From Blasia pusilla (lineage: Eukaryota), in the NCBI GenBank assembly GCA_050084515.1, contig CM114271.1, forward strand, positions 5,828,001 through 5,892,000: a DNA stretch of 64,000 nt, in the 5' to 3' direction. This document shows positions 4,201 through 59,800 of the stretch, one piece after another. How positions within the stretch are numbered: position 1 is the stretch's first letter; every line of letters starts with the position of its first letter. The notes under the pieces are model-generated. The model did no database searches. It was given only the letters and a program-made list of their open reading frames with translations, and had not been told where the DNA came from. A program made the translations under genes and the position numbers.

Positions 4201-4851
4201 CAACTCCTTTCTCATGGGCATCTCGCGAACCAATCTCACCTACACCTGTTTGCCTTTCACTAAGACACTCAACCTCAATGGCCTTCTTCTTAGCTCCACC
4301 TCATACGTATCCAAGAATGTGTTCCCTAAGACTCCATCAATGCCATCCAACTCGCACACTGAGAAATTCTCCTTCAACTCAAATATTGCGCATCCTATCG
4401 TCAAACCCAACACCAACTCGGAAGTTAGATGAGACTTGCCTCCGGCAAAGCCTACTCGAATGGGCTTGTCCGCCTTAGACGTTGACAAACCCAACTCCTT
4501 CATGATTCTTGGGCTTAGGAAGGATTTCAAAGCACTTGTATCCATGAGCAACATTACATCGCAATCAACAATCTTGGATCTTAGGTACACCAAGTTGGAC
4601 GTCCTATTGGTGACTTGAAGGGAGGTCTCTAGACCTCTCGCCGACAAGTGCTTAACGGCCAACGCAATCATACTCCCATTACTAACCTTCAATTTGGAGC
4701 ATCTCTTTGCCATGTGCCTAGGTTCACCATAGTTGTAGCATACCACCTTGCCATTTCCTGACTTCGGATGTTGCGCTCCCTTCGGCTTAGCATGGCGTTC
4801 CTGTCGCTTGCCTCCTGGTTGCATTGAGAGACTCTCCTTGGTCCTGCTCAA
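1212..4851 (-). pseudogene. pol: Ty3/gypsy pol (zinc-knuckle remnant, protease, RT, RNase H, integrase, chromodomain), disrupted by stops and frameshifts
   Basis: ORF fragments: LLMDTSA (PR); [26 protein letters not shown] (RT); ASDFAIAG..HEKEL..FTDN (RH); CHDG..GH..CVTCQ (INT Zn); STAFHLQTDGQTE (INT core); FQVETI..YLVKWKGY..EATW (chromodomain; a premature TAA at 1251 is followed in frame by a TAG at 1212). Confidence 0.93.
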
Positions 4852-35900: not shown

Positions 35901-36393
35901 AATGCTTATTCTACTTTGTTAGGGTTACATAGTAGCACAAAGGATTTTTTTGGCATTAGGGTCCAAGGGGTTTCTTTTCACATAACAATTTTTTAAGCGA
36001 GAAAATTTTATGCATGGAATGGAGTGACATGTAGACTGCAATATAGCAAGGGTGAGGGATGGATGAGCAACAAGATGATAACACCATAGTCATTAGAGGT
36101 GGGTGAGTTTTGATATTTTGTGGTGCATCTTGCAGAAGTAGGAGGTTTGACCAATTTGCATATTGGATATGGTGCTATGTGGTATTAGGGGTTTTTTGGG
36201 TGCATCCTTTTGATGTTGGTTGGAATGGCCCTTGGGGGCATATGGTTTTAAGTGTTAAGGTGATGTAGGGGTGAATTCCTAGGGATTTGATTATTATGAG
36301 ATACTTTTTGTATCCTTTGCAGGAATGTATGTGGGCCAAACAGGGATCAATCAAGTGGTGGACTTCTTTGTGTTGTCTCGATTGGGTAGTATA

Positions 36394-36712
<319 letters not shown>

Positions 36713-37952
36713 TAGATCATGTCTTAGGGATGGGTATCAAGCATGGAGGTTTATCAAATTTTTAAAGTGGGTGATGTGTTGTCATTACCCATGGTGTGTT
36801 GAGTGTGTGGTCTAGTATTAATGCTACTAGTGAGTAGTAGATGCTAGTGGTGATGTATGAGGCACCAAGTGGTTATTTCGATATTCTCTTAGAGTTCTAA
36901 CGGAGGTGTAGGTTTGAGTTCATATGGATGTGATGTGATGTGTTTGTGGTATGTGTGATATTTTTTAGTATATGTTTATAAATGTGTACAAAGATGTATG
37001 TTGTGTAGCAATGTATATGTGCATGATATGACGCCTTGTGAGAGCAACGATTCTGGTTTCTCTTGCGTAGAGGTACTTACAAGAGAATTGGCTTGCATAT
37101 CTTAGGAGCAGATGCTTAGAAGAATCATGGCATCTTGCGGTAGCTAAGGTGGTGAAAAAGCCATCTAGTTCAGAGATAGAGCAAGCCATGATTACAACAT
37201 GTGCAATGATTGTGGCCAACTAGGTCAAGATATTCCAATTAGTTGGTCCATCAAGATTTTTGGACCAACCACAACATGTTATCCTTGATTCAAGAGTGCA
37301 ATTCTTTATGTTGGGAAGGTGACATACTTAGCGATGGGGTTGCGGAAGCGAAAAACCATTCTATGTCTGGTTTCGATGTAGACCTCACTTGGAGGTACTT
37401 CCTTAATACGATACATGACTCATGATGAGATAGCAGTAAGGGTTCGGCCCAACCATCGTGTAGATAGTACGGTGGTGAAACCAACCAATTTGTATGATGT
37501 TTTGGTAGGGGCTACCACATTGAATCCACTAGGCTTCACACTTGACTTCTAGATTATAGGCTTCATGGAAAATCTTTTATTCTCCATTGCTATGGAGTGC
37601 AAAACTCATGAGAAGATATAGTATGGTAAATTAAAGTTGTAGATTAGTCTATATTCAAAGTATTTGGATGTCATGCATGTGCTCATATACAACAAGACCA
37701 TACGTCAAACTAAGTTGGATTTAAAATGAAGGAACCTTATCGTCCTTGGATATAAGAAACTTGTGAAAGGATAGAGGATGTGGGATCCGAGTGCACAATG
37801 GATAGTTACGAAAACTATCACATCTTTTAGGATAGATCGGCGAGATCTAGTAGAGCCACTTCAGAGATATTGGAGGACAACCTCAGGAGGTCGAGGATGA
37901 CCTGCTAAGGCCACGGGTAACCTGAGAGAGCAGGTTTCCCCTTTGTTTCGAC

Positions 37953-38654
37953 ATAGATTTGGTCATTGCACGTTGGCCGTGTTAGGGCCAATCGGGTGCT
38001 GGACGAGGTAGCGGGTTAGTTGACACTCAATCTCGGTTGTTTTGGGAGATGATGCAAATCTTGCGACACTTGCAAGAGCATGAGTCACGTTCTCCACCAT
38101 ACATTATGGAGAATGTGCCGATTTTGGGCGATTCGAGGTCCTGAGTGGTGACAAGTGCACATCAGGTGCGCGCATGGATCTGCCCGATAGTGTTGTTAGA
38201 CGCGGCGAGTGTAGGTTCATGAGCACATCACCCATGTCTTTGGTGGACCAACTTGGTGCTACATGAGGTTTTTCAGGGGGCGTATGCGCGAGTGGAGCAC
38301 CCCTCCCATTTGTTGGTGGATTCTACTTTGGATCCAGGTTTCCGATCACAATCAATACGACACGATGATTGACCCCCGTTGACTGTGGTCAACAGGATTG
38401 GCATGCCACGAGCAACCTTTCCCACATTGGTGAGTTTCCCCGCTTCCTATACATTCAAGGAGGCTAGGCCAAGCTTGGTTTGGGATGACCACGTACAGCG
38501 ATTGGTGGATCCTAATGCCGATGAGCGAGAGCGAGCGATGAGATTCCCCTCAAGAGTGACGACAATACCGTCACTATCAGAGGCATCACAACGTCATGTC
38601 TTGGATCAAGTGATGGACCTGAACTGCTTGACATGGATTTTTAGCTTAGGGTAG
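37953..38654 (+). pseudogene. C5 cytosine DNA methyltransferase, C-terminal part (motifs IV-X), DNMT3-like
   Basis: IDLVIARWPC*GQSGAG (IV), YIMENV (VI, 38109), H.P.LWWTNL (VIII), ERERAMRFP (IX), RHVLDQVMDLNCL (X). Confidence 0.88.
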
Positions 38655-38952
38655 TTGAGCACCATCGTTTGAGGTTGCGATAGATTACAGCTATTGCGTT
38701 GGTGAGCTGAGCCCCATGCATACCAAGATGGTGGAGGCAGTGGCTGGGGGCGAGACTCGAGTAGATCGACATACCATAGATGATCGGGAGAGACACCCTT
38801 GGATTTCTTCGAATATTTTGAAGGTACGCCGGGAGATGATAGCCACAACATCGAGCGTGGTTCCGGGTATTGCATGTGGAGGAGATCAGAGTTTGCAGTT
38901 GGCTATAGGGGAGCAGCCGAGTTCTATTGTCCAAGACGGGGTTGCACCATAG

Positions 38953-41900
38953 CAACCACCGGCATCTGCGTCGAAGAGTCCTACCTGTAGTCACGATGGA
39001 GACTTGGGAGCCAGATATGGGCCCTAAGTTGATAGGAGGAGAGCGGCGCCGGATATACCAGTTCCTTAGGAGTTGTAGGAGCTGTTTTGCATTTAGCATG
39101 CATGATTTTGGTACGTTGAAGGGTCCAGGGATCAGCATTGAGTTGTCGAGTGACACGCCAATCTTCCCACGATCCGACAGATATAGTGACATGGAGAGGG
39201 CTCTGATTCAGAGTAGGAGCTAGGACTTGGTTGGAGCAGGACTAGTGGAGATGTCACATGGAGAGTATGCATCTGCCACTGTCATGCCTGCCAAGAAGGA
39301 TGTGCATGGGAGTAGGATGGATAGGCGGATGTGTGGAGATTATCGACCAATCAATCGCCAGATGAAGTCCAATAGATATGCCATGCCCATCCCTGAGGAG
39401 ATTTTTTATACTACTGGGCATGCAAAGGTCTTTAGTTTGCTAGATCTTCAATCCGGATACCATCAGTTGCGTATCAGATTGGAGGACAGGTTGAAGACGG
39501 AATTTTGGGGCATCAATCCTCACGAGAAGGATTGTTTGTACTAGTGGCGGTTCTTACCATTTGGGTTAAAGAACGCCCCGGCTGAGTTTGAGAGGGTCAT
39601 GGATAGGATCTTGGCAGGTCTGGATTTTGGTAGGTTTTATATTGATGACATCGTAGTTTTAGCGCCACAGTTGAGGAGCATGAGCGACATCTAGAGGAGG
39701 TGTTTTGATGATTGCAGTTTCATAAGCTGAAGCTACATCCAGGTAAGTGCAAGTTCTTCTACGACCAGATTAAGTACCGAGGGCATATGATATACTCAAA
39801 GGGGCCTTGGTGTGCATTAGACAAAGGTGGAGGCTATTTCACGCATTCCACGCCCTACAGATGTGAGTCGAGTTCGTGCATTCATGGGATTGGCAAACTT
39901 CTATCCAAGGTACGTCAAGGATTTCAGTTTGATTGCAAAGCCACTGACCTTGCTGACCAAGATGGATCAAGAGTGGCACTAGGGGATGAGCAGGAGAGAG
40001 CATTTCACCAACTCAAGGACAGATTGATGTGTGCGCCTATATTGAGGAGACCGATCAGGGCGTCCTTTCCAGTTGCATACTGATTGGAGCATGTTGGGGC
40101 TTGGAGCCATGCTCACCCAACATGATGATGAGGATAGAGAGTTCATGGTGGCTTATGTTAGTAGTTTGAACAAAAATGCAAAGGCAAAGTATAGCTCGTA
40201 TGAGGGTGAGTGTTTGGCGTGCAGGCTATTGCGCATTTCAGGTGTTATATATTCGGGAACCCATTTACCATCATAACTAATCATCAGCCACTTCAATGGT
40301 TGATGGAGTTTGACAAGCTTACAGGGAAGCTTGCAAGGTGGGCTCTATTGTTGCAGGAGTATGATTTCCAGATGGTGCGTAGACCTGGGATGCTCAACCA
40401 AGATGTAGATGGTTTGAGCCTTAACCCATGCTCGAGTCAGAGAGATATGACTCGAGCTTGCTGGCATGGAGAGAGTGATGAGGAGTTGGTGCCAAGATGG
40501 CACCCATCAGCCTATTTGGGCTTGTTGGCTATGGAGATCCAAATTGTTGAGACTTCGATGGCGAGGTCTAATGGAGAGTCCTTAGATCTAGAGGCCGATG
40601 AGGAGACGACAGGTGGCTGAGACATTCACGACGATGGATTAGTCTTACAATACCTACATAATGGCAGCGTCATGAGCACAATGGATGCTAGAGAGCGGGA
40701 TCGGATCCTACAGCGAGCCAGACGGTTCCAATGGGAGGGGACACATGTGTTGCAAGTGTGGGAGGATGGTAGGATACGTGTAGTGCCTCATCCTTCACAG
40801 AGAGCAAGTTTTGTGCGTCATGCCCACAAGGAGTTGGATCATTTTGGAATGAAGCAGACATATAGCTTGCTCTAGATACAATATTGGTGGCGAGGCATGT
40901 AGATTGACGTTCATAAGTTTGTTCCCAGGTGCATGGTGTGTGGTCGGGTCCGAGCATCGTTCAATGCTCCGACTCCACAGTTGCATCCACTTCCGATCAT
41001 GGGTTTAGGTTATAGATGGAGTTTGGATTTAGCAGGACCTTTACCTTTCACGGAGCGCCATAGTGGTTATGTGTTGATGATGGTCGAGCACTTCTTGAAG
41101 TGGATAGAGTTGGTTGCATTGCATGACAAAGCAAGTGAGGGAGTAGCGTATGCCTTCCAAAATGAGTGTTGAGTCATTACGGTGCACCAATTGAGGTGTT
41201 GATAGACCGGGGTACAGAGTTTCGTGGGGAGTTTCAAGCCTTGTGTGATCATGGACTTATCGACCACCGCACCACTTCGCGATATCATCTTGAGGTGGAT
41301 GGACTATCGGAGAGGGTTGTGCAGACGGTGAAGAGAGGATTACGCAAGTATGGCTTGCAGAGAGGTCACCTAGGAGATTGGGACCTCTAGTTGCCATGGT
41401 TGGCAATGGGATAGAGATTCAGCACGCAGACATCGTACGTGCTACTTTATGGCCGAGCGATTTACCTACGGCTATTTATCGAGATGTTGGTGAGGTGTTG
41501 AATCTTGATGACCTTGATATATGGATGCGAACTTGTTCTCAGAGGGCTGAGTTGTTTCAGAGAGTGATGCCCATGGCGTTTGAGAACTTGGCGATTACGT
41601 AACATCAGAATACGTTGAGGTATGCGACTATTCGGGGACGTGATTATTGACTGACTATCCAGAGGTTTCATCAAGGAGACTATGTTACTTGTAACAGACG
41701 GAACCCACAACGTGGGATGTGACTACAGGGCGCACCATCTTGAGAGTGCGTGAGGTTTTGCCATCTGGTATTCTTTGAGTTGAGGGATGCGATGGTATGG
41801 TTTGGAAGGAGCATGTGTGTAACTGTGCGCCATGTCACCTTCCTAACATTGAAGGTATAGTTGATCTGAGCTTAGTAGTAGTTCATGTACGCTTGCAATG

Positions 41901-42048
41901 TATGTTGTATGGTTCCACTCGTGGTGCATCCACTATGCTAGTATGTGATGGATGTTCGAGAGGGTGGCATATGGCATGCCTGACGTCACCTCTCACTAGG
42001 ATTCATCGGGGACGGTGGATATATCCCTGATGTACACAGAGTAGGTAG
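38953..42048 (+). pseudogene. pol: Ty3/gypsy RT - RNase H - integrase - PHD finger, copy 2
   Basis: RMCGDYRPIN, LPFGLKNAP, YIDD, HTDWS, YSSYEGEC, HAHKELDHFG, WSLDLAGP, DRGTEF, and C-terminal CMLYG..CDGCSRGWHMACLTSPL..W. Confidence 0.92.
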
Positions 42049-43019
42049 TTCTAGATTCTGACTTGTATCTATGACATGGATGACAAAAAGGTGACTAACG
42101 ATGGGGCCACATGAGCACCCAAACATTTTGCTCTTAGCGTCTGAGAGATGTATGTCATGGTAGGTAGGGATAGATGGCTATTTGGAGTTAGAGCGATCTA
42201 ACCACGAGCTAGGGGGGCGATTGGAGATATTTTGGTACTTCTCGTCTCGTTGTTTGGATACCATGAGTTACCATGGGATCGTGTATGTTTGTGTGTATGT
42301 TCGATGACAACGATGAATGTTGTGTAGCGATGTGTATGTGCACAACAACTATCACGTCTTTTAGGATAGATTGGCGAGATCTAGTAGAGCACCTTCAGAG
42401 ATACTAGAGGACAGCCTCAGGAGGTCAATGATGACATGCGGAGGCCACGGGTAACGTGAGAGAGTAGGTTTCCCCTTCGTTTTGGCTCATTTGGAGCCAT
42501 ATAGAGAAACTTACTATTTCAGGTAAGTTTCCATTTGGACTATAGTTAAATTTCCACTTTCAGAAGTGGCCCTTGACCCGCTGTAGCAGGTCAAGAGCCA
42601 AGGAGGTGATCTACGAGCATAGGTTACCGTGGAGAGAGCTTGGGAGAGGGAAGGGGGTATACCTCAACGAGAGAGAGTTTGAGAGCTCATTCTCTCTTTG
42701 TTGAACCTCTTGGCATGAGGCGGCGGACCTATGGTCCTCCTTGCCTTGTGTGTGTAACCCAAGCCTCTCATTAGGAGAGTGGGTTTGGTTTGACATGAGA
42801 GAGAGTGCACACCATGGAGAGTTTGGTATGAGATGTGATGTGAGATTTCATTGATTTATTGGAGATATTTTGGTACTTCTTGTCTCATTGTTTGGATACC
42901 ATGAGTCAGCATGGGATCGTATATATGTGTGTGTCAGTTCAGTGAGAGCGATGTATGTTGTGTAGCGGTGTGTATGCGCACGACAGTAGAGAGTGTGACA
43001 TTTTATGAAAATCTTATAT

Positions 43020-44620
43020 TGAAAAGTAATTGATGGCTAGAAATTGTTACAATTGGAAAGTTGAAATGTTCGAGAAGATAAAATATCTTCAAAAGAACCA
43101 AACATAAGACTTGGTGAAATTTCTTGAGAACAAAAAGGAAATTGATGATAAGTGGGTACATAAAGAAAAGGGAGGAAATCCCCAAATATTAGGAGAGAGA
43201 TGTAGGAAAAAGCTTTTAGCAAAGGGATATGTAGTATTATGCACATAAGCAAGATATCCACTTCAACAAGATCTTCTCCTCAATGGTAAGGATTATGTAT
43301 GCTTGTATTTTGTTAGCCATTTTTGCATTCTATAATTTGAAGCTAGATTCAATGAGATGTGAAGATTTATTTTCTTCATGGAGAGTTAAAGAGGGAATTC
43401 AACATGCATCAAGCAAAAGAATTAAAGGTCCAAGGGAAAAGAAGATATGATGCGCAAATTGAAGAAGTCTCTGTGTGGACTAAAAAAACCTTTTGTGACT
43501 TGACGATGGCACAAAAGGTTTGATGCCTTCACGACCAAGAAAGGTTATATCAAAATTGAATTAGAAGTGGGAGAACTCCAAGTATTTATCTTGGTATTAT
43601 ATATTGATAATATGTTGATAATTATATTACACGTGGCTAAGAATAACATAATTAGAATGCAACTTAGCAAAGAGTTTGATATTAAGGATCTAAGTTGTGC
43701 ATGTACAAAGGGTCTAGGGAAAGACATTCAAAAGGACAAGGAGTATTTATTGTTGATATCTCAAAGTTAGTTAACAGAGAAGGTGTTGGCATGCTATGAT
43801 GGCATGGATGATTCAAAGTCAATCGTTGCTCTCTTCAATACAATATCCTACCATAGAAGACAACAAAAATACGTGTCTATTATCCCTTATGGAAGTGTGG
43901 TGGGAAGTTTGATGTATGCAATAGTATGTACAATATCAAACATCTTGTATATTGTGAGTATATTTAGAAGATATATGGTGGATCCAAGGAAGGAGCACTA
44001 GGAGGCTATGAGGTGGATGCTTTGGTATTTTAAGGTGAGTATGGATGTTGGTATTATGCTTCATATAGACTATGTGAGAAAAGGAAATGTGACATATTTT
44101 GGGGTTCTAAATTTTATGGAGATCTAGACAAGAAGAGACCCATTACAAGTGATGTGCTTAGATTGGAAAATGTTCTTATAAGCTGAAATCAACATTGCAC
44201 CCCACCATTGCTTTGTACACTACAATGACACGATATATATTTGGTAGTTAGAGAAGTAGCAAAGAAGGATATCTAATTCAGTTGATTTATTGGTGAACTT
44301 CGGTTAATTCAAGATCAATTTATATTTCATTGTGAATCTATGATAGCCATTGTGAAATTCACTTGGATAAAGAAAACAAGTGCATCGCTTGGGCAAACAA
44401 GACTATTGATATTAGATATCATAACACTCGGAAGGTTTTGTATGATAATGAAGTTTGTATGCATAAGACATGTATGAAATTAAATGTGGACATGTTGATA
44501 TGGGCAAACAAGACTGTTGATATTAGATATCATAACACTCGGAAGGTTTTATATGATAATGAAGTTTGTATGCATAAGACATGCATGAAATTAAATATGG
44601 ACATGTTGATACGATCAGAA
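43020..44620 (+). pseudogene. highly decayed Ty1/copia RT/RNase H relic
   Basis: FLHGEL, LVLYIDNMLI, IPYGSVVGSLMYAIVCT, TIDIRYH. Confidence 0.75.
44390..44611 (+). repeat. 111-bp direct tandem duplication
   Basis: 44390-44500 and 44501-44611 are nearly identical. Confidence 0.95.
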
Positions 44621-47737: not shown

Positions 47738-48438
47738 TGACTTACTAACGTTCACAATACTTATAGTTAACTTTTTCATTCATTCATTCACGTATAAATA
47801 TATATTGCTACATAGATCTTACTTAGATTAGAAAAATAATTGGTTTGCTCACTAGGATAGGAAAATGAGAAAATCCCTAAATGAAGAATTGCAAAATTGC
47901 ATATGGAAAAAAATCATGTTTGTGGACATGTCCATGCCCATAAACTTACGTCTGTCCTATGGAAGGACTTGTTCATGTGGGCCTCACGATTCTAAATATG
48001 TACCATCTCCCACCTAAACTTATCTATCCATGTACGTCTTAAAGATGCATATCTCTGTTTCTAAACAACCATGACTTAGAATTGAAAGAACGATTTCCCT
48101 TTCGTATGAATATCCATTTAATTATGAAAAAAATAAACTTCAAATGAGGACAAAGAAAGGTAATAACATCTCAAGAAGGGGAGGATTCAAGGATTCAATA
48201 AATGCACAATGAAATGCAAAAATAAAATGCCAATAATCCAACATAAACACTAAATCAATTAGCACCTCGATTAGTAGCATGAAAAAAATATGACAAGAAC
48301 ATTAGTCGGTGCTCTAATGGAATGGACGTAATGAATGAATGGACGACGATGTGAGTGACCCGTAACCTCTTCCGCTCAACATATCAACAACAAAGCTTGC
48401 ACATATTGTAAGGCCATCGAGATGCATTGCCAAAAATT

Positions 48439-48470
<32 letters not shown>

Positions 48471-48554
48471 GACTACGAGAAGGGGAAAGATGATAATTCT
48501 TGCGGGAGTGGTGAACAAATATTTTCATGAAAGTATCAAAAGATATATGTAAGT

Positions 48555-49068
48555 TGTCACATCTCTTAAGATAGATCGGTGAGATCTAGTAGAGCGCCTT
48601 CGTGAGTAGCGGAGTAGAGGCTCAGTAGGTCAAGGATGACGTGCTGAGGCCCCGGGAAACTTGAGAGAGCAGGTTTTCTCTTCGTTTCGGCTCATTTGGA
48701 GCCATATTGAGGAACTTACTATTTTATGTAAGTATCATTTTGAGTATATGATCTACTTTATATTTTTGGTAAGTGGCCCTTGACCTCTTACATCAGGTCA
48801 AGAGCCAAGGAGGTGACTTGGGAGCATAGATTACCATGGAGAGAGCTTGGGAGAGGGGAGGGATATACCTCAAGGAGAGAGAGCTTGAGAGCTCATTCTC
48901 TCTTTGTTGAACCTCTTGGCATAAGGCGGCAGAGCTATGGTCCCTTGCCTTGTGAGTGTAACCCAAGCCTCTCATTAGGAAAGTGGGTTTGGTTTGACAT
49001 GAGAGAGAGTGCACACCTTTGAGGGCTATGGTGTGAGATGGTGTAGAGAGAGATTGGATCTTATTTTA
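48555..49068 (+). repeat. terminal repeat block A1 (514 bp)
   Basis: Direct repeat of 58222-58735. Confidence 0.93.
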
Positions 49069-49083
49069 CAAAGAGAGAATGAG
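49068..49083 (+). promoter_or_regulatory. putative self-priming primer binding site
   Basis: ACAAAGAGAGAATGAG is the exact reverse complement of CTCATTCTCTCTTTGT (48892-48907), an initiator-like site ~30 bp after a TATA-like GATATAC. No TGG-type tRNA PBS follows A1. Confidence 0.6.
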
Positions 49084-50607
49084 AGAGTGAGAGAGCTTCA
49101 TGGGGGAGCTCGCTGGTCACTCGCTGTTTTTTCAGGTTGGAGAATGTGTTCCCCATTCAGCGGCTCATGGGAGTGCTCACCGGAGCAAGGGTTGCTTTGA
49201 TTGTTCTTTGCATTTGCCGATTTTTTGTGTGGAAGAGTGGCGCGCGGAAGTGCTGCCCAATTTTTGATAGGGATTGATTATGGGGGCGGATTGCCCCATG
49301 CCGGTGCTCTTGGGAGCACCATGCAGCTTGCTGATTTGTATTTTTACAGGTTTTACATTTTCGTTGGGAGAAATCAGCGCGGAAGCGCTACCAAATTTTG
49401 TGTAGGACAAAGAGACATTGGGCTTTACGACAGTCCCCGTCAGTTTTTAGTGGAATGTTTGATTCTAAATATTTTTTGACGTTGTTGTAGATCGTAAGGT
49501 TGTGCAAGATGTGCAATAAATAGTTTGCAATTTGGAGTTGCGAGCAAAAAGTTATGGTCAATCTTGAAAAACTGCCATTGCTTGGCGATTTTTAGGGTTA
49601 AATTGTTCAAACCCTAAACCAGCCGCCACACTGGCGGCGGCTGTCGCCGTCATAGTCACCATCAGCGGTCCACCATCGATGGTCAACCATCACCATCAAT
49701 GGTCAACCGTCAACCATCACCGTCACCGGTCGGCCATCACCATCAACGGTCCACCGTCACCGTCAACGGTGTACCGTATGTTGTCCACCCTTTGGTTGCC
49801 ATTGCCACCATTATGGAGTGGAGGGTCTTCCACGGCGTTCGTTGATTCTCTGACTTGCGTTGCCACCACGTACTTTGTTTTGGCCACCACCGTCATCGCA
49901 GTTTTGTCATCAACCAGTCATGGCAGATGACCTCTGGTTATGGTATTTGAGTTTGCTATGTTGTGATTTGTAGCCTCTCGACGAAGATTGGGTACCGTGC
50001 CGTGACGCTCATAGCCGCAACGCGCCGCCGATTGCTGCGCCGTGCCGCTCATGGCCGCACCGCACCATCTCGATCACAGAAGCGCTCCTTCACTAAGGAG
50101 CAGAGCGTGTGAATTGCTGATTGAGGAGGGTATGCCACCGAGTGCCGCACCCCATTCCCAAGTGCAGTGTTGTTTGTAGTCGTTCCGTGCCGCCAGTGCC
50201 GCACCGGACCGCTCAACCTGCACCGCACATCGAGGAAGTTGAGCAGCGTCAAACGAGAGGAGTACGACTTGCTGATTGGAGGAGTTTTCTTCACGACCGA
50301 GTTGGGGTCGAGATTTGCAGTTGTTGAGGAGCGATATCGACATGTGTTCAGGTTACCCATTCTGGTCCTTTACCCTACATGTGTGAGGGATTCTGGGTAG
50401 TTTATTTGGGGATATTGGGTTGTGTGGATGCTGAGAGCATCATTCATGTATGTGGTTTAGGGGACATAGACCTGTGTTGGATGTCCGGAGTTGAGGGTAG
50501 GTTGTCGATGAGATGATAGTCTGGTCGATTGGCCGCACCATGCCGCGTGTTGCCGCACGTTACACGGGGAGGGAGAGTGTAGATTGAGTGCTGCATGTTT
50601 GGGATGA

Positions 50608-52818
50608 GTGATTGAGGGGATTACTCGCGAGGTTGAGAGTGATCGGGTGAGAGGGGCTCGAGGGTCATCACGGGGTCCGTTCGGGACTTTGAGAGGTGAG
50701 GTGGTGAACCCGAGAGTAGCTCTAGAGGTTTTACGCGGATTGGCGCGAGGTTCCGAAGGTCTCCACGTGAGGGACCACCTCGACCTCCTTCTGTGTCATC
50801 GTCAGACGAGGGGGAGGGTGTAGAGGAGTTTGTGAGCACATTGCCATACATTGTGAGTGGTCCTACCAGTTGGGCGTACGAGATGGACGACTGGGGTAGA
50901 GGACCGCGTAGGTTTTCATGTGCAGTAGGCACGATTGAGTTGCACAATTTCATAGCAGAGTTTAGGAGTTGGTGCGACTCCCAACGGGCCAGGAAATCTA
51001 GAGAGTTGAACCCGTTTACAACATGGAACGGTATGTTCCAGCATTTAGAGGGGGCGCCCAAGGACAATTACCATGAGTTCTCCCACAGATATGCCCATGA
51101 GATTGAGGCATGGCGACTCTACTATGACCCACACTATGTGTCATGGACGGAGCCGTTCCCAGATGAGGAGGAGGAGCCATGAGAGGCTACTTCCTCTTCC
51201 ACTAGTGATGTTTTAAGAGGGGTCACTCGCACTGGAGCAGTTACACCATCTAGTCGGTTTCGTCCCTGGTTCAACCCCGTGGTTTGAGTTCTTCGCTGAG
51301 TTGAGGGCCATCTACCAAGGGGTATGGACGGAGAAGTTGTGGAGCATCCATGACTTCCAGAGGTGCCCGGGTGAGAGTTTACGTGAGGCTTACACTCGCT
51401 TGTGTCGGTTGATCAACGTCACTTAGGCTATCCAGTCATGTACGCGATGCTGGACCGGACCCTACAGACACGGGTGCGGGAGGGGGTGCTTCTTATGGAC
51501 ACCTCCCCTATATTGAGAGATGTTTTTAGGACCGCCGAGAACATTGAGAGCAACATGGCAGAGGAGAGCGTAGCCACCATGGGTTCTGGGCAAGAGCAGT
51601 CACGATTGGCTGCACCACTTGTGCAGCAACGTGGACTCCGAGATAGGTCGATTGTGGCACCACAAGCTCAAGGAGGATACCGGGAGGCTGTGCCACAGAC
51701 ACATGCGTCTTCATATGCGGCTCAACGATAGCCGCCTACTATTACTTGTTGATCATGTAGTAGAGCCCACCATCAGCGGGATTGCACTCGTCAGGGTCAT
51801 GGACGTGTGCCTTAGTATGGAGGAGGAGATGGTGCTACACCAGGAGGTTATCAATGTGACTATTTTCAGAGGTATGGTCATACACGCGCAAGGTATTTCA
51901 GTTTACATCTTGAGTTACGTCCGAACCGAGGGCTAGAGAGGGCACCAGAGCAAGAAGCCAGTCTGGGTGGACCTAGAGATTGTGCACCAGGTGGTCCCGT
52001 TGGGGGACGAGGAGCTGGAGTTGCCCGAAAGGGTGGTGGAGCTGCCCGTGGAGGAGATAGAGTACCACCACCTAGACACGCTGAGGGCGACGCCGGACGT
52101 GAGGCTGGGATGGCTGCTCAGATACACCAGCTACAGGAGCAGATTGCCGCTATGGCATTGAGGTTACTCGATGCCAGATCCGTGGGCATGGACATCATAT
52201 GGAGCAGCTAGAGATATGGAGGATCCTGGTTGGATGTGCGGGGTTGCCCAGATGGAGGCCGCCGTAGTTGTGACGAGTGGAGCAGCCGTAGAGTTGGATC
52301 CACAGCGAGGGGAAGCCAAAAAACAAACTAGGCTTCCTTAGTCTTTCACGTTGTCCGAAGCGATGAGGACCCCATCGATGGGTCCTCATCAAAGTTCCTG
52401 GAGAGTTGGTGATGTTGTTGGTGTGTAGGCACGGAGGGCGATGGGAGAATCGAATGCGATGACTCATATTTTTGATGCTCAGCAGGGGCATGTGTTGAGC
52501 ACGTTGTTGGGGGCGGCCACCATTGTGTACCGCGCTCCTTTATTTTTTGCTTTCGATGTTATGACATTGGAAGGTACGCCCGCTGAGGCTTTTCGGCTGG
52601 CCGCTACGCTATGTGAGCGTGGAGTTGGAGTTCCTACATCACGTTCAAAGGTGATTGCAGAGGAGGTGATGGACCTGCCCTTGGAGCCGATGCTCGGGCC
52701 GTCCACGTCATATTCATGGCAGGCTGCGGCTGCTAGGATGGGGGAGATGCCCGCTAGACCCGCGAGAGAGCGTGCCATTGCTTCTCCTGGTGTTGTGTTG
52801 CTAGATAACCGAGGATAG
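50608..52818 (+). pseudogene. gag: gag region with two zinc knuckles, disrupted (start approximate)
   Basis: Gag-like GPRRFSC..LHNFIAEFRSWCD..MFQHLEGAP; C*SCSRAHHQRDC (~51747) and CDYFQRYGHTRARYF (~51855) knuckles; last ORF is in frame with the protease across two TAGs. Confidence 0.65.
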
Positions 52819-52827
52819 ATCTTCTAG

Positions 52828-53200
52828 TTGGTGAGTCCCCGAGGTAGAGCTTTCAATCCGCACCGCGTCTTGTTGGATTCAGGAGCGCAACCCCTGATGT
52901 TGGGGAAAGCGTCATTCAGAGGATTGGGCTTGACGAGAGCCGATGTGGAGCGTTGTCCATTCCGGATACAGACATCCTTGGATGGAGTGAGTACCACACA
53001 GTATATCATCCGACAGGAGGTCGTGGTGAGGATTCGCCCGGGACATCCTACAGATGAGTCCGTGGTGCGAGCCAAGGCGATAGTGACTGATGCAGAGTCC
53101 TACGACGTCTTGGTTGGTGGAGCAGTGTTATACCCGATGGGGTTTCCCTTGGATTATTGGGAGGAGTCAGCATCCTACAGAACAGGATGGCACTCAGGTG
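52828..53200 (+). pseudogene. retropepsin aspartic protease domain
   Basis: VLLDSGAQPLMLG (DSG at 52876) and YDVLVGGAVL. Confidence 0.85.
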
Positions 53201-53586
53201 ATGGGTGCCTTAGCTCATTACCCATTCGATTCAGAGGTGCAGTGATCGAGCAACTGCCAAGAGAGATGGCGACCTTAGCAACATTTAGCAGTGCCATCAC
53301 TTGGCCTAGTGATTTGATTGAGGGACATGTCCATGCAGAGAATACTCCCGTTCCTGACATTTCTATGGAGAGGAGTGTTATGGTAGCCACATTATTCCGT
53401 GGAGGAGAGGTGCTTCTTTGGGGCTCGAATGAGGAGCTTCGACGATTGGCAGATGAGCACGTGCAGACCGCGTGGAGCGAGACGTTTGCACCGGAGCGTG
53501 ACGGGTCAGAGGAACCCGAGGTAGCAGGGAGTGCTACGATGACACCCTTGGATACCACACCCATTGTGTGGTGTACCCCGGAGGAG

Positions 53587-54500
53587 GGTATTCGAGTGTT
53601 AGATCTCTTTGGAGGGATTAGCACCGAGTTAGCTGCTGTTTTGCAGGCAGGAGTGCGAGTACAAAAATACCTGTATGTGGAGAGTGATGATGTTGCAAGG
53701 CGCATCTCACTACGACATGTGGCGCACTTACCCCTATGTTTTTCCGACTTATTTTTTCCGCGGTATAGGGATACTAGAGTTCCCTATCGAGGGATATTTC
53801 GTTGTTCGAGGCGCACGACTTGGAGCGGGTAGGGACCATTGATTTGGTCATTTCCGGTTGGCCATGTCAGGTCCAATCGAGTGCTAGACGAGGCAGCGGG
53901 TTGGCTTACACTCGATCCAGGTTATTTTGGGAGATGTTGAGGGTCTTACAGCAGTTGCAGGAGCATTAGTCTCATTCTCCAGCCTACATTCTGGAGAATG
54001 TGCCGATCTTAGGAGACTCCAGGTCACGGGTGGTCACGAGTGCTCATCATGTGCGTGCCTGAATCAGCCTAGCAGTAATCTTGGAGATGACGAGTGTAGG
54101 TTCTAGAGCTTATCGCCTGCGTCTATGGTGGACCAACTTGGTGCCCCATGCGGTGTTACAGAGGGCGTACGCGAGAGTGGAGCACTCCTCCCATTGGTTA
54201 GTGGATTCCATTATGGATCCAGCTCGTCAATCACAGGCAGTGAGGCACGATGATCGACCACCGTTGACTATGGTCAACAGGGTAGGCAGGCCACGAGCAG
54301 CCTTGCCCACTTTAATGAGTTTTCCCGCTTCCTATGCATACAAGGAGGCCGGTCCCGGCTTGGTTTGGGATGAACATGTTCAGCGGTTAGTGGAGCCCAA
54401 CGTCAACGAGAGAGAGAGCGAGCGATGGGATTTCCCACAACAGTGACGGCATGTCTTGGGTCAGGCGATGGACATGAACTGCTTGACATGGATCCTCAGA
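53587..54500 (+). pseudogene. C5 cytosine DNA methyltransferase domain (DNMT3-like, motifs I-X in canonical order) inside the polyprotein
   Basis: GIRVLDLFGGIST (I), YLYVE (II), DI (III), IDLVISGWPCQ (IV, PC at 53862-53867), LFWEMLRVL (V), YILENV (VI, 53994), RAYRLRLWWTNL (VIII), ER..AMGFP (IX), HVLGQAMDMNCL (X); frameshifts near 53755 and 54415-54450 and in-frame stops. Confidence 0.92.
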
Positions 54501-54803
54501 TTGGGAGTGGCTGAGCATCGTCGTATGAGATCGCGACAGCTCACGGCGGTTGCGTTGGTGAGCCCCATGCCTACCGAGACGATGGAGGCAGTGGCTGGGG
54601 GTGAGACCCGAGGAGATCTACACACCAGGGGAGATTGGGAGAGACACCCTTGGACTTCTTGGGATGTTTTGCAAGTACGCCAGGAGATGATAGCCACAGC
54701 ATCGAGCGTGGTTTCGGGCACTGCACGTGGAGGAGATCAGAGTTTGCAGTTGGATGCAAGAGAGCGGCCGAGTGTTGTTGTTCGAGACGGGGTTGCACCA
54801 TAG

Positions 54804-57760
54804 CAACCACCGATACCCATGCCGGAGAGTTCTTCCGTAGTCAGGATGGAGACTTGGGAGCCAAATATGGGCCCTAAGTTGACCGGAGGAGAGCGGCGCC
54901 GAATACATCAGTTCCTCACGAGTTATAGGAGCTCCTCTGCGTTTAGCATGGAGGATTTGGGTACGCTGAAGGGACCGGGGATCTGCATTGAGTTGTCGAG
55001 TGATACGCCGATCTTCCGATGACCCTACAGGTACAGTGATATGGAGAGGGCTCTGATTCAGAGTAGCAGCCAGGACTTGGTCGGAATAGGACTAGTGGAG
55101 ATGTCGCATGGGGAATATGCATCTGCCACTGTCATGCCCACCGAGAAGGATGTGCATGGCAATTGGACGGAAAGGCGGATGTGTGGGGATTATCGACCTA
55201 TCAATCAGCACACGAAGTCCGATAGGTATGCCATGCCCACCCCTGAGGAGATCTTTGATGCGATCGGTCACGCAAAGGTCTTTAGTTCATTGGATTTGCG
55301 AGCCGGATACCATTAGCTGCCTATCAGATTGGAGGACAGGCAAAAGATGACATTTTGGGGCATCGATCCTCACGGGAAGGATTGTTTGTACCAGTGGTGG
55401 TTCTTACCATTTGGGTTAAAGAACGCCCCGGTTGAGTTTCAGAGGGTTATGGATAGGATCTTAGATGGTCTGGATTTTGCTAGGTGTTATATTGATGACA
55501 TCGTAGTCTTTAGCGCCACGGTTGAGGAGCAGAGCGACATCTAGAGGAGGTGTTTCGACGATTGCAATTAAATGGGCTGAAGCTACATCCAGGCAAGTGC
55601 AAGTTCTTCTACGACCAGATTGAGTACTTGGGTCATACGATATATCCATGGGGCCTTGGTGTTCAAGCAGACGAAGGTAGAGGCTATCTCACGCATTCCA
55701 CGCCCTACAAATGTGAGCCATGTTCGCACATTCATGGGATTGGCGAACTTCTATGGACGGTAGGTCAAGGGATTTAGCTCGATTGCGAAGCCGCTGACCT
55801 TGCTGACCAAGGTGGATCACGAGTGGCACTGGGGGGATGAGCAGGAGCGAGCATTTCAGTTGCTCAAGGACAGGTTGACGTCCGCGCCCATCTTGAGGAG
55901 ACCGATGAGGGGGCATCCTTTCTAGTTACACACATATTGGAGCATGTTGGGGCTTGGAGCGGTGCTCACCCAACATGATGATGAGGGTAGAGAGTTCGTG
56001 CTGGCTTACACTAGCCGCTCAAACAACGCTGCAGAGGCAAAGTACAACTCATATTAGGATGAGTGCTTGGCTGTGGTGTGGGCTGTCGCGCATTTTAGGT
56101 GTTACTTATTCGGCAACCCCTTTACCATCAATCACTGAAGTGGTTGATGGAGTCCGACAAGCTTACAGGAAAGCTTGCAAGATGGGCTCTGTTGTTGCAG
56201 GAGTATGATTTTCAGGTGGTACATAGACCTGGGATGCTCAACTAGGATGCAGATGGGTTGAGTTGTAACCCATGTCCGAGTCAGCGAGATGTGACTGGAG
56301 CTCGATGGCATGGAGAGAGTGATGAGGAATCAGTGCCAGGATGGCACGCGTCAGCCTATTTAGGCATGTTGGCTATGAAGAGCCAGAGTGTGGAGACTTC
56401 AATGGCGAGGTCTAGTGGAGAGTCCTTGGATCCCGAGGCCAGTGAGGAGACGACAAATGGCCGAGATATTCATGATGATGGAGTAGTCTTGGAGTACCTT
56501 CGTACTGGCAGCGTTGCGAGCACAGTGGGTGCTAGAGAGGGGGATCGGATCCTACAGCGGGCCAGACGATTCCGTTGGGAGGGGACACATGTTATGAGGG
56601 TTTGGGAGGATGGCAGAGTACGCGTAGTGCCGCATCCTTCCTAGAGAGCACGACTAGTGCAGCATGCCCATGAGGAGTTGGGTCACTTTGGGGTGAAGCG
56701 GACGTATAGCTTGCTCCAGATTCAGTATTGGTGGCGAGGCATGCAGACTGACGTTCAGCACTTTGTTGCGAGGTGCATGGTGTGTGATCAGGTCTCAACA
56801 TCCTTCAATGCTCCAAATCCATAGTTGCATCCATTACCAATCATGGGCTTAGGGTATAGATGGAGTTTGGATTTTGCAGGATCTTTGCCTTTGAAAAAGT
56901 GTCACAGTCGTTATGTGTTGGTGATGGTCGAGCACTTCTCGAAGTGGATCGAGTTGGTTGCATTTCTTGACAAAGCGAGTGAGGGAGTAGCACATGCCTT
57001 CCTAGATCGAGTGCCGAGTCATTAGGGTGCACTGGCTGAGGTGTTGATAGACCAGGGTACCGAGTTTCGCGGTGAATTCCACGCCTTGTGTGATCAGGCG
57101 CTGATCGACCATCGCACGACTTCGCGAGATCATCCCGAGGCGGATGGATTAGGGGAGAGAGTTGTGCAGACAGTGAAGAGAGGTTTATGCAAGTATGGCT
57201 TGCAGAGAGGTCATCTAGGAGATTGGGACCTCTAGTTGCCGTGGTTGGCGATGGGATACAGATTTAGCAAGCAGACATCCTTAGCGTCTTTTTCACCGTA
57301 CTTGCTACTTTATGGCCAAGAGCCAGATTTACCTGCGGCCACTCGTCAAGATGCTGGTGAGGTGCTGGACCTTGATGAACCAGATGTATGGATGCGAGCA
57401 TGTTCTGAGAGGGCTGAGTTGTTTCGGAGAGTGATGCCCATGGCGTTCGAGAACTTGGCGATTGCGCAACATCAAGATACGTTGAGGTATGCGACTATTC
57501 GGGATGGTGGTTATCGACCAACTATCCGGAGGTTTCATCGGGGAGATTATGTCTACTTGCAGCAGACGGCACCGACGACGTTGGATGTGACTGCAGGGCG
57601 TACTATCATGAGAGTGCGTGATATTTTGCCATCCGGTGTTCTCTTGCTGGAGGGACGCGATGGTATGGTATAGAAGGACCATGTGCGTAATTGTGCGCCA
57701 TGTCACCTTCCTAACATTGATGGTACAGTTGATCCGAGCTTAGCAATAGTTCCTGTAGGC
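54804..57760 (+). pseudogene. pol: Ty3/gypsy RT - RNase H - DDE integrase, copy 1
   Basis: RMCGDYRPIN, LDLRAGYH, LPFGLKNAP, YIDD (55488), HAHEELGHFG..CMVC, WSLDFAG, DQGTEF, TTSRDHPEADGLGER. Confidence 0.93.
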
Positions 57761-57766
57761 TTGCGG

Positions 57767-57901
57767 TGTATGTTGTGTGGTTCCGCCCGTGGTGCAACCA
57801 CTATGCTAGTCTCTGATGGATGTTCGAAAGGATGGCATATGGCATGTTTGACGCCACCTCTCATTAGGGTTCCTCAGGGACAATGGATGTATCCCAGATG
57901 T
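57767..57901 (+). pseudogene. PHD finger at the integrase C-terminus
   Basis: CMLCG..MLVSDGCSKGWHMACLTPPLIRVPQGQWMYPRC; copy 2 has CDGC, giving a C4HC3-type consensus (the penultimate Cys is Tyr in both copies). Confidence 0.85.
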
Positions 57902-58074
57902 ACATAGAGTAGGTAGTTCTACATTTTGACTTGTGTCTGTGACATGGATGACAAGAAGGCGACTAACGATGGTGCCACATGAGCTCCCGGACTTCTTGCT
58001 CTTAGCGTCCGAGAGATGTATGTCATGGTAGGTAGGGATAGAAGGCTATCTGGAGTTAGAGGGACCTAACCACC

Positions 58075-58088
58075 AGATAGGGGGGCGA
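58075..58088 (+). promoter_or_regulatory. polypurine tract preceding block B1
   Basis: AGATAGGGGGGCGA; AGGGGGGCGA at the same place in copy 2 (42211). Confidence 0.7.
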
Positions 58089-58219
58089 TTGGAGATATTT
58101 TGGTACTTCTTGTCTCATTGTTTGGATGCCATGAGTTAGCATGGGATCGTGCGTGCGTGTGTGTGTGTGTGTTCGGTGACAGCGATGTATGTTGTGTAGC
58201 GACGTGTATGCGCACGACA
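58089..58219 (+). repeat. terminal repeat block B1
   Basis: TTGGAGATATTTTGG...GCACGACA; direct repeat of 58736-58862. Confidence 0.92.
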
Positions 58220-58221
58220 GC

Positions 58222-58735
58222 TGTCACGTCTCTTAGGATAGATCGGTGAGATCTAGTAGAGCGCCTTCGTGAGTAGCCGAGGACAAGCTAAGTAGGTCAA
58301 GGATGACCTGCTGAGGCCGCGGGAAACTTGAGAGAGAAGGTTTCCCCTTCGTTTCGGCTCATTTGGAGCCATATTGAGGAACTTACTATTTTATGTAAGT
58401 ACCATTTTGAGTATGTGATTGACTTTATATTTTTGGTAAGTGGACCTTGACCTCCTACATCAAGTCAAGAGCCAAGGAGGTGACTTGGGAGCATAGGTTA
58501 CCATAGAGAGAGCTTGGGAGAGGGGAGGGGTATACCTCAAGGAGAGAGAGCTTGAGAGCTCATTCTCTCTTTGTTGAACCTCTTGGCATAAGGCGGCGGA
58601 GCTATGGTCCCTTGCCTTGTGAGTGTAATCCAAACCTCTCATTAGGAGAGTGGGTTTGGTTTGACATGAGAGAGAGTGCACACCTTTGAGAGCTATGGTG
58701 TGAGATGGTGTAGAGAGAGATTGGATCTTACTTTA
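58222..58735 (+). repeat. terminal repeat block A2
   Basis: Direct repeat of 48555-49068. Confidence 0.93.
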
Positions 58736-58862
58736 TTGGAGATATTTTGGTACTTCTTGTCTCGTTGTTTGGATGCTATGAGTTAGCATGGGATCGTGCA
58801 TATTTTTGTGTGTGTACGGTGACAGCGATGTATGTTGTGTAGCGATGTGTATGCGCACGACA
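58736..58862 (+). repeat. terminal repeat block B2
   Basis: Direct repeat of 58089-58219; ends CGACA followed by the TSD. Confidence 0.92.
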
Positions 58863-58872
58863 AAGTGCTAAA

Positions 58873-59073
58873 TCTATATTATTATGGGAGAGTGCCTTCT
58901 TGATCTGCCAACACCTCTCTTGCTGAAAGAAAATATTTCACATGCTACGCGCAACAAGAAAAAATTTGAATTTATTTGCAACATCATTAATCTCTTCCCT
59001 TCACTTCACGAGCTATACACTAGGTGTTCAAACTTTTTTTTTATTTCTCGTGCATCACAGGGCACCTTACTGG
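58873..59073 (+). mobile_element. mini non-autonomous Helitron (same family as 23803)
   Basis: A|TCTATATTATTATGGGAGAGTGCC ... CTCGTGCATCACAGGG ... CTGG|T. Confidence 0.8.
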
Positions 59074-59800
59074 TGTTTGAGAATATTCACAACCATATCC
59101 AGATAAGAAGATTATCTATTTATTCATATTAGTGTATCGATGATAAGCTCTAATTTTTTTTTGTCACGGATGAAAGATCTTAGCATGATTAGAATTCTTA
59201 TTAGATAGGCAGTTACAAGAAATTCTCTTCAAATTTTTCTTATGTCTTTGTTGACAAGATTTTATACCCGTTCTCCCTTGCCATAGCTTTCCATGTTGTA
59301 AAACTTTTCTTCTCCTCTTACTTTGATACTTTTTCTTGGATGTATTTTTTCGGAAAATTAGATGGCTACTTGTTAACATCATAGCACCACTTCTCCATAC
59401 ACTGTTTGGAAAGATGGGTAAAGCTAATAGGTTCAAATCAGAATTGTGTATCATTTTCAAATCTTCAACAAAATATGCCACAAAAAGGGGGCATTTCTTT
59501 GTATAAAATATCTCAAAAAAATTCAAAAGAAAAGAATTACTTTTCCTCTTATAAAACATCTGAAATGTACCCATTCCTAGTTCAAGAGGTTACCTAGTGT
59601 CTAACGGTTCTACAATACACTTGCACTTATTACTTTAGGAAGGTGTGAGCTTTGGACACTTACGCCCTATGGCTTACTTTGAAGACAAAGGTAGGTAGGG
59701 TCCTTACACCCAAGCACACCCTCTATGATCTCTTCGATTACATGTGTGTGTATGAATGCTCACAACAAAGGTCTCTAGTTTAGGATATGTGCCCTTCCAC

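Follow-up and report, generated by a model that had tools for sequence, protein, structure and literature searches.

Retroelements of the DIRS, Ngaro and PAT groups carry split direct repeats in the order A1...B1-A2-B2, with B1-A2 as the continuous form of the two termini, and they use a tyrosine recombinase; as a rule, their insertions show no target duplication. In the textbook view, long terminal repeat (LTR) retroelements integrate by way of the two ends of a linear cDNA. A combination of these plans is already in print: KnitGypsy-Dnmt3 of Klebsormidium nitens was described with DIRS-like repeats and Gypsy domains, and the arrangement of SymbioDIRS-Dnmt3 was given as A-coding-B-A-B (de Mendoza et al, 2018; PMC5890265). 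Here we analyze a 64,000-nucleotide stretch of the Blasia pusilla genome (hereafter the window; assembly GCA_050084515.1, contig CM114271.1, positions 5,828,001 to 5,892,000 of the forward strand), in which a retroelement at window positions 48555-58862, copy 1, shows split repeats around coding domains of the Ty3/gypsy type. We consider it likely that copy 1 is a degenerate Ty3/gypsy-type element that is integrated as a permuted version of its reverse-transcription product.

The closest described element is like this one in two respects: its Gypsy-type Pol polyprotein includes a C5 DNA methyltransferase (DNMT), and its repeats are DIRS-like. The first-pass annotation of the window, which was made from the sequence alone, knew of no described gypsy lineage of this kind, and was wrong with regard to the layout, as that of KnitGypsy-Dnmt3 had been published (PMC5890265). 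The two differ in their hosts, Klebsormidium in one case and bryophyte-like genomes in the other, and they are likened by layout and domains, not by sequence; no Klebsormidium-named protein appeared among the 26 and 48 protein matches to the present family. The passages of the 2018 article on KnitGypsy-Dnmt3 mention no polypurine tract (PPT), primer site, boundaries, duplication or mechanism (PMC5890265). Relative to those passages, the self-primer, the CA-nn-TG site, the 4-bp target-site duplications (TSDs), the junction leftovers and the A...B form reported below are new. When we searched the literature for a mechanism of split repeats in gypsy elements, the 2018 figure legend, which gives none, was the sole description that came up.

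Compared with the DIRS group, the present family has the split repeats, but a DDE integrase, TG/CA ends and 4-bp TSDs in place of a tyrosine recombinase (PF00589) and TSD-free insertion. Compared with Ty3/gypsy elements, it has the order reverse transcriptase (RT), RNase H and DDE integrase, the similarity to Ty3, and TG...CA termini with a TSD. It does not have two complete, identical terminal LTRs, the 5' end carrying A only in 27 of 27 related loci, and its primer site and PPT abut an LTR only if that LTR is read as B-nn-A. At the integrase C-terminus, where a chromodomain was looked for, there is a PHD finger.

Repeat layout and coding content

Direct reading and comparison gave the order AAGT / A1 ... 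PPT-B1-gc-A2-B2 / AAGT for copy 1. Identity between A1 (48555-49068) and A2 (58222-58735) is 94.6% across 514 bp, and that between B1 (58088-58219) and B2 (58735/6-58862) is approximately 91%. Downstream of A1 lies unrelated leader sequence with no B. The 3' end of B1 (...CGACA), the spacer gc (58220-58221) and the 5' end of A2 (TGTCA) together form the palindrome GACAGCTGTC at 58216-58225 (GACA-GC-TGTC). The polypurine run AGATAGGGGGG at 58075-58085, followed by CG up to 58087, adjoins B1, and the 4-bp duplication AAGT is found before A1 (48551-48554) and after B2 (58863-58866). In all these points, namely the repeat structure, the palindrome at the CGACA-GC-TGTCA joint, the PPT before B1 and not before the TG of A2, and the TSD flanking A1 and B2, direct reading and self-comparison agreed with the first-pass annotation. 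An LTR consisting of A alone was rejected, since the duplication follows B2 and not A2, and the PPT does not adjoin A2. The features of the two ends of copy 1 are as follows, where U3, R and U5 stand for the unique 3', repeated and unique 5' parts of an LTR:

48551-48554, no strand: left TSD, AAGT; read directly, the same 4 nt following B2
48555-49067, plus strand: A1, starting with TGTCA, from its identity to A2; proposed to hold distal U3, promoter, R and U5
48863-48868, plus strand: TATA-like box ATATAC, lying 29 nt before the self-primer segment; most moss relatives compared have a similar box
48892-48907, plus strand: r1, 16 nt in perfect complementarity with the primer site; the genomic RNA is predicted to begin here
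49068-49083, plus strand: putative primer-binding site of the self-priming type, directly after U5, from complementarity and fold
58075-58087, plus strand: PPT AGATAGGGGGG and CG; kept before B1 in moss loci
58088-58219, plus strand: B1, proposed 5' part of U3, with the end ...CGACA; from repeat comparison
58216-58225, no strand: palindrome GACA-GC-TGTC, proposed integrase cleavage site; the 2-nt spacing of CA and TG is kept
58222-58734, plus strand: A2; from repeat comparison with A1
58735-58862, plus strand: B2, fused to the last U5 base, with a proposed cDNA-terminus joint at 58734/58735; from sequence reading
58863-58866, no strand: right TSD, AAGT; read directly

The window holds a second, partial copy of the element:

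37816-42985, plus strand: copy 2, with partial A1, internal deletion and PPT-B1-ac-A2-B2; from comparison with copy 1

Copy 2 is approximately 85% identical to copy 1. Its 3' end (42210-42985) has the composition that the first-pass annotation had given for it, with PPT-B1 at 42210-42347, the spacer ac, A2 at 42350-42857 and B2 at 42858-42985. On the 5' side, just 135 nt of A1 (37816-37950) are left, followed by the internal deletion.

The layout was then compared across 80 related loci (635,767 bases) from metagenome contigs, which were recruited by protease-DNMT alignment and probed with four sequences derived from locus L018: A, B, the 150 nt upstream of B1 and the 150 nt downstream of A1. 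This copy census therefore describes metagenome contigs of relatives, not the source genome itself. Probe matches were obtained in 40 of the 80 loci. Self-comparison revealed the full A1...B1-A2-B2 order in L014, L018, L035, L037 and L043, in which the moss-family blocks measure approximately 340 bp (A) and 115 bp (B), and partial layouts were seen in other loci. At all 27 of the 5' ends, A runs directly into the leader with no B between, and B-nn upstream of A was found at none of them. Based on flanking sequence, these 27 ends represent at least 22 distinct insertions, with identical flanks marking L018 and L043, L024 and L025, L032 and L035, L049 and L050, and probably L047 and L048 as the same insertion. 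A third lineage, with unrelated LTR sequence, displays the same split layout in L056:15048-17684, with its repeat end at 17029-17684. Its order is RNase H, integrase, PHD, 11-G PPT, B1, GACA-gt-TGTCA, A2 and B2, and its A2 includes a TATAAAAG box.

The first-pass annotation had named two findings that would overturn it. One, a complete A+B block at the 5' end as in an ordinary LTR, was seen at 0 of the 27 related 5' ends. The other was an assembly artefact; the layout recurs in independent relatives, in other samples and in the third lineage. Such recurrence, extending to a lineage with unrelated LTRs, is more than chance would give. The split-repeat layout is a real, clade-wide trait, and neither an artefact nor a local deletion.

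A few further arrangements were recorded among these loci. L056:10001-17684 is nested, in that the RNase H region of the third-lineage element contains, at 15098, the end of an A...B-type element. In L058:6852-7107, which equals L059:16155-16410, a deletion between ATGAC microhomologies, one in B and one in A, has removed the CA-nn-TG joint. Two repeat pairs, at 7364/7821 in L036 and at 6830/7189 in L076, were considered as B1/B2 and rejected as unrelated, tandem-like repeats.

The coding order along copy 1 is protease, DNMT, RT, RNase H, DDE integrase and PHD finger, preceded by a gag-like region:

49568-52800, plus strand: leader and gag-like region, degenerate; no Pfam match in the window fragments
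52828-53600, plus strand: aspartic protease region with an LLDSGAQP motif; from translation and protein similarity
53600-54446, plus strand: C5 cytosine DNA methyltransferase domain, frameshifted; PF00145 in relatives
55023-56245, plus strand: RT and RNase H, fragmented; RVT_1 and RT_RNaseH matches
56645-57673, plus strand: DDE integrase with H2C2 zinc finger and rve core, fragmented; Integrase_H2C2 at E = 8e-18, rve weak
57674-57907, plus strand: PHD finger at the integrase C-terminus; PF00628 at E = 1.4e-7

Every reading frame is broken in both window copies. In the moss relative L009, the open reading frame (ORF) equivalent to the gag-like region contains a zf-CCHC knuckle (Pfam), and the RT-RNaseH-integrase ORF has Ty3 Gag-Pol as its top solved-structure match (7q5b, E = 3e-86). 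The rve match in the moss relative L018 lies over Pfam's cut-off. The 334-aa protease/DNMT ORF is 50-53% identical to Marchantia polymorpha proteins, with approximately 90% of the ORF aligned, and also matches proteins of Calypogeia and Sphagnum; many of the matches carry PF00145. Over 54063-54446, the translation shares 56% identity with the methyltransferase part of the relative P0003. Pfam scans were run on single ORFs. At thresholds of E <= 0.01 or 0.001 for PF00589, no tyrosine recombinase was found in the scanned ORFs (window on both strands, L018, L009 and L056b); a profile search for such an enzyme had been proposed in the first-pass annotation.

The PHD finger is also present in L018, L056b, P0037 and P0050. 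An integrase that ends in this finger was noted at 57674-57907 in the window, L018:13985-15109 and L056:16764-16976, with PF00628 replacing the chromodomain of chromoviruses, which suggests targeting via a histone-tail reader. The DNMT lies between protease and RT in the window family and in the Marchantia proteins P0011 and P0026, and between RNase H and integrase in the more distant, intact relatives P0050 and P0037. Since its position differs between relatives, the domain was either relocated within the PHD-bearing group or acquired there on two occasions. In the Protein Atlas, P0037 fell into generic RT/RNaseH clusters alone, without taxa. Short tandem repeats of 20/27 nt, in CACCATC...GGTCAACC units, occupy 49671-49779 at the start of the leader/gag region.

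Signals of integration and reverse transcription

Perfect 4-bp duplications adjoin A1 at its TG and the last B at its CA in 8 of the 11 elements that have both ends. The duplicated sequences are AAGT in window copy 1, TCTC in L014, CATA in L018/L043, AAGG in L035, CACA in L068, ATTA in L016, TGTT in L025 and ATGC in L074; a further duplication, in L008, is matched at 3 of 4 positions (GGTA / AGTA). The junction was read in 10 loci, comprising the two window copies, seven moss loci (L018 and L043 being one insertion) and L056b. The spacing from CA to TG was exactly 2 nt in all 10, with the spacers gc, ac, at, gc, tc, gc, ac, gc, at and gt.

Prototype foamy virus (PFV) and HIV-1 integrases cleave a palindromic LTR-LTR junction internally in vitro (PMC1180852, PMC1905944). 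The likeness to the present element lies in a palindromic CA-(n)-TG, for which we propose internal cleavage here too. In retroviruses, however, the palindrome arises from circularization and its use is a side route, whereas here the palindrome lies in each LTR and circularization would create the A|B joint.

The PPT stands directly before B1 in 11 of 11 moss loci compared and in window copies 1 and 2. In L058/L059 and in L074, one base of the G-run is substituted. No tRNA-type TGG primer site adjoins A1. From the last nucleotide of A on, 49068-49083 is the reverse complement of the internal A segment 48892-48907 over 16 nt. The corresponding complementarity measures 17 nt in L035 and 8-12 nt in nine further degenerate copies, and a match of at least 8 nt is lacking in four copies (L018, L037, L014 and L012). 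None of 2000 shuffles matched the observed length of complementarity, in the window and moss lineages alike. The primer sequences of these lineages differ at many positions, an indel included, with the pairing retained, and the primer helix closes the minimum free energy and centroid folds (z = -2.55 and -3.28). A TATA box is located 27-29 nt upstream of the self-primer segment: the window has GGATATACC, and the majority of moss copies have a box of the TATAAAG or TATAG type. R-U5, measured from this segment to where A ends, comprises 175-176 nt in either lineage, even though the whole of A is 514 bp long in the window and 339 bp in the moss family.

In self-priming of the Tf1 type, the 5' end of the RNA pairs with a site just after U5. 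The primer and TATA pattern leads us to predict a Tf1-like self-priming here, with a predicted RNA 5' end complementary to a post-U5 site and no tRNA-type primer site, as in Tf1/sushi-Tcn1 elements. Those elements have ordinary paired LTRs and a chromodomain, whereas the present element has permuted LTRs and a PHD finger. Self-priming has also been predicted for the plant Tcn1 clade (Neumann et al, 2019; PMC6317226). Given a PPT before B1 and a self-primer site after A1, the reverse-transcribed LTR would be B-nn-A. These positions support the first-pass proposal that the true LTR is B+A, reaching from the PPT to the primer site.

The family is transcribed in Blasia pusilla. In two RNA runs, 6,756 and 7,383 reads showed at least 85% likeness to copy 1, and the depth of first mates on the minus strand exceeded that of first mates on the plus strand in 30 of 30 bins in both runs. 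Under the stranded-library convention, this bias indicates sense-strand RNA. RNA reads also run across B-nn-A, with the spacer ac in 10 and 28 reads and the spacer at in 11 and 8 reads, respectively. Contigs of two DNA runs mapped massively to the element, with depths that are not copy numbers; they contain B-nn-A with the spacers tt and at, and A followed by primer-site sequence.

Routes to the integrated form

The permutation could arise in the following manner. A promoter in A1 (TATA-like box at 48863) would start an RNA at approximately 48892, and this RNA would end somewhere in A2. Its first 12-17 nt would fold back on 49068-49083 and prime the minus strand in a Tf1-like way, and the PPT before B1 would prime the plus strand. 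The LTR so made would be B-nn-A, in which U3 consists of B, the 2-nt spacer and positions 1-337 of A, and R-U5 of positions 338-513 of A. The cDNA termini, that is the end of U5 and the start of B, would be joined to give the A2|B2 joint. Within one LTR, integrase would cut the 2-nt-spaced palindrome in a staggered manner, behind either CA, producing conventional TG...CA termini with recessed CA-3'OH ends and 2-nt 5' overhangs. Insertion with a 4-bp target duplication would finally yield A1-internal-PPT-B1-nn-A2-B2. We hold the circle-first order of these steps only tentatively, giving it somewhat less than an even chance.

The A2|B2 joints bear on the joining step. Eight distinct joints were compared, and in six of them (window copies 1 and 2, L018/L043, L034, L035 and L037) the last U5 base is fused to the third base after the G-run of the PPT. 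In L014, a 17-nt filler occupies the joint and the PPT-adjacent CG is kept, and the joint of L040/L068 contains the first 10 nt of the primer site and five further bases, followed by B. Leftovers of the primer site and of PPT-adjacent sequence are what ligated, unprocessed cDNA termini would be expected to leave, and they would be hard to reconcile with inheritance. Comparison of B1 with B2 revealed no position-specific groups and an identity no lower than that of A1 with A2, which fits both pairs being regenerated at each insertion.

Not all copies end in the same way. Of 22 loci that matched B, nine (seven distinct) have B-nn-A, two (one distinct, L040/L068) have a rearranged A|B end, and 11, all with different flanks, pass from the CA of B into unrelated DNA with no A2-B2. 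Four of these 11 plain A...B copies have both ends, with a perfect TSD in L016, L025 and L074 and a 3/4 match in L008, and the plain B end in L056 adjoins RNase H coding sequence of its host element. A primary origin of the A...B copies, through a circle with one LTR or through cleavage at the sites of both LTRs, is as possible as a secondary one by deletion between B1 and B2. Solo A|B units, which the first-pass annotation had suggested searching for, were not seen in 0.64 Mb of relatives, a weak argument against frequent recombination.

A number of observations weigh against the circle-first permutation. The plain A...B form, which the first-pass annotation did not anticipate, accounts for 11 of the 19 distinct moss 3' ends. 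Among the distinct 5' ends, which number at least 22, none has the mirror form A|B-nn-A...B, compared with seven distinct B-nn-A ends; a two-LTR circle would contain two identical CA-nn-TG sites, so a random choice between them predicts the mirror form as often. It may be that the left LTR is the first to become double-stranded, or that deletion between the two A blocks quickly collapses mirror forms. The six precise joints fit re-creation and inheritance alike, which leaves the argument with the two imprecise ones. All both-ended copies examined carry stops or frameshifts, no TSD is visible at the ends of copy 2, and L037 has AATG at its right end and a damaged left terminus. Most RNA reads are 85-95% like copy 1 and hence come from other copies of the family. 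Neither a pile-up of RNA starts at 48892 / 58559 nor a poly(A) site was seen in bins of 361 nt, which are coarse, and with cross-mapping between A1 and A2. Finally, the layout, the duplications, the protein domains, the places of PPT and primer site, the complementarity, the variable A2|B2 joint and the sense transcription were observed directly, and we infer all the enzymatic steps, the physical two-LTR circle and the joining before cutting.

The first-pass annotation had derived the A2|B2 joint from joined cDNA ends and had placed the integrase cut at the internal CA-nn-TG site. The joint does behave in this way, being precise in six of eight cases and bearing leftovers or filler in two, and the TG/CA ends with 4-bp TSDs and the DDE integrase agree with a cut at that site; the circle and the unseen mirror form are where its account falls short. 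By inference from the sequence, the mechanism that it put forward is largely supported.

The only serious rival retains the same LTR and dispenses with a free circle. Integrase would act on linear (B-nn-A)...(B-nn-A) cDNA, and cutting would precede joining: cuts at both internal sites would give A...B, and use of the left site only, with both of its halves, followed by host repair that joins the two remaining cDNA termini, would give A...B-nn-A|B. In this way the seven distinct B-nn-A ends and the 11 ends in which B meets the flank would both be covered, the imprecise A|B joints would be accounted for as repair-like, and a left LTR that is double-stranded first could explain the absent mirror form. 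The route would need, however, concerted integration of an end on a fragment of approximately 130 bp. We regard it as unlikely, although it is not distinguishable from the circle-first order by sequence.

It is considerably less probable that A...B-nn-A-B elements copy the A2|B2 joint through an RNA that spans it, by unconventional priming, and do not make it anew in each cycle. The common register of six of the eight joints and the persistence of RNA depth over B2 (41-67 in the last bin) would agree with such copying. However, the PPT and the self-primer site set the cDNA ends at the start of B and the end of A, and an RNA from r1 would have no B downstream of A1 for terminal redundancy. Moreover, the two joints with primer-site or PPT-adjacent leftovers are each unique to a single locus, and B1 and B2 do not form position-specific lineages.

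An ordinary A+B LTR that lost its 5' B and gained a sub-terminal duplication of B, or an assembly artefact, is highly improbable even though A2+B2 resembles a normal TG...CA LTR, given the absence of B at 27 of 27 related 5' ends, the PPT before B1 and not A2, the recurrence of the layout in contigs of several metagenome assemblies, in two window copies and in the third lineage, and the RNA reads and contigs of other runs that span B-nn-A. Equally improbable is a DIRS/Ngaro/PAT-like element whose closed circle is integrated by a tyrosine recombinase: split direct repeats are typical of that group (PMC5890265), but the scanned ORFs contain no PF00589, 8 of 11 both-ended elements have perfect 4-bp TSDs, and the RT-RNaseH-integrase order is closest to Ty3.

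Other copies and implications for the clade

Further traces of related elements were found in the window and in the reads. One of them lies upstream of copy 2:

36340-37029, plus strand: third, older B-like remnant with an expanded (GT)n run at 36395-36712; from sequence comparison

The (GT)n run of approximately 318 bp corresponds to a short GT run within B. The end of the remnant at approximately 37029 is a C-to-T-decayed copy of the B terminus, and downstream, at 37125-37549, there is a fragment resembling a protease. A further element of the gypsy type, distantly related, lies on the minus strand at approximately 2300-4220, with pieces of RT, RNase H and integrase that are 29-47% identical in translation to the copy 1 element. 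A 111-bp tandem duplication is located at 44390-44611, outside the copy 1 element.

RNA reads depart from the reference after the PPT (58088; 100 reads) and after TGTCA (58226; 66-113 reads) and continue with starts resembling moss-type B and A. These departing reads show a second transcribed subfamily in the same organism, with other LTR blocks and a similar internal region. Over 48300-59100, other copies differ from copy 1 chiefly by C>T and G>A, with approximately 520-590 places in the RNA runs compared to 65-285 for each other change, an excess that fits decay of methylated cytosines in old copies. Some RNA reads skip 1,071 nt (54968-56040; 5 and 10 reads) or 73 nt (55648-55722; 15 and 20 reads). 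These skips are not of the GT..AG type and are probably transcripts of internally deleted family members.

The circle-precursor model of retroviral integration belongs to the 1980s and has long been abandoned. Circle intermediates are known from the IS3, IS30 and IS256 families of insertion sequences (IS), in which a DDE enzyme cuts abutted inverted ends that lie a few bp apart. These circle-junction IS elements are prokaryotic DNA elements without reverse transcription and serve as an analogy only. For the plant-lineage gypsy clade described here, we put it at almost an even chance that an LTR-internal palindromic attachment (att) site on end-joined, circular cDNA is the obligatory substrate of integration, a reading that would span bryophytes and, probably, KnitGypsy-Dnmt3 of Klebsormidium. 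In the favored reading, insertions of this clade need both the LTR-internal integrase site and the joining of the true cDNA ends.

If this is true, a retroviral-type DDE integrase acts in the manner of the circle-junction IS transposases, or of the old circle-precursor model, and the DIRS-like split repeats arose convergently, without a tyrosine recombinase. The clade would then offer a natural system for internal, restriction-like cleavage by an integrase of the retroviral type. Standard LTR finders will mis-annotate such elements, and in Blasia pusilla the family is both abundant and transcribed. The presence of a DNMT together with a PHD finger in Pol is, in addition, of relevance to the interplay between transposons and host chromatin.

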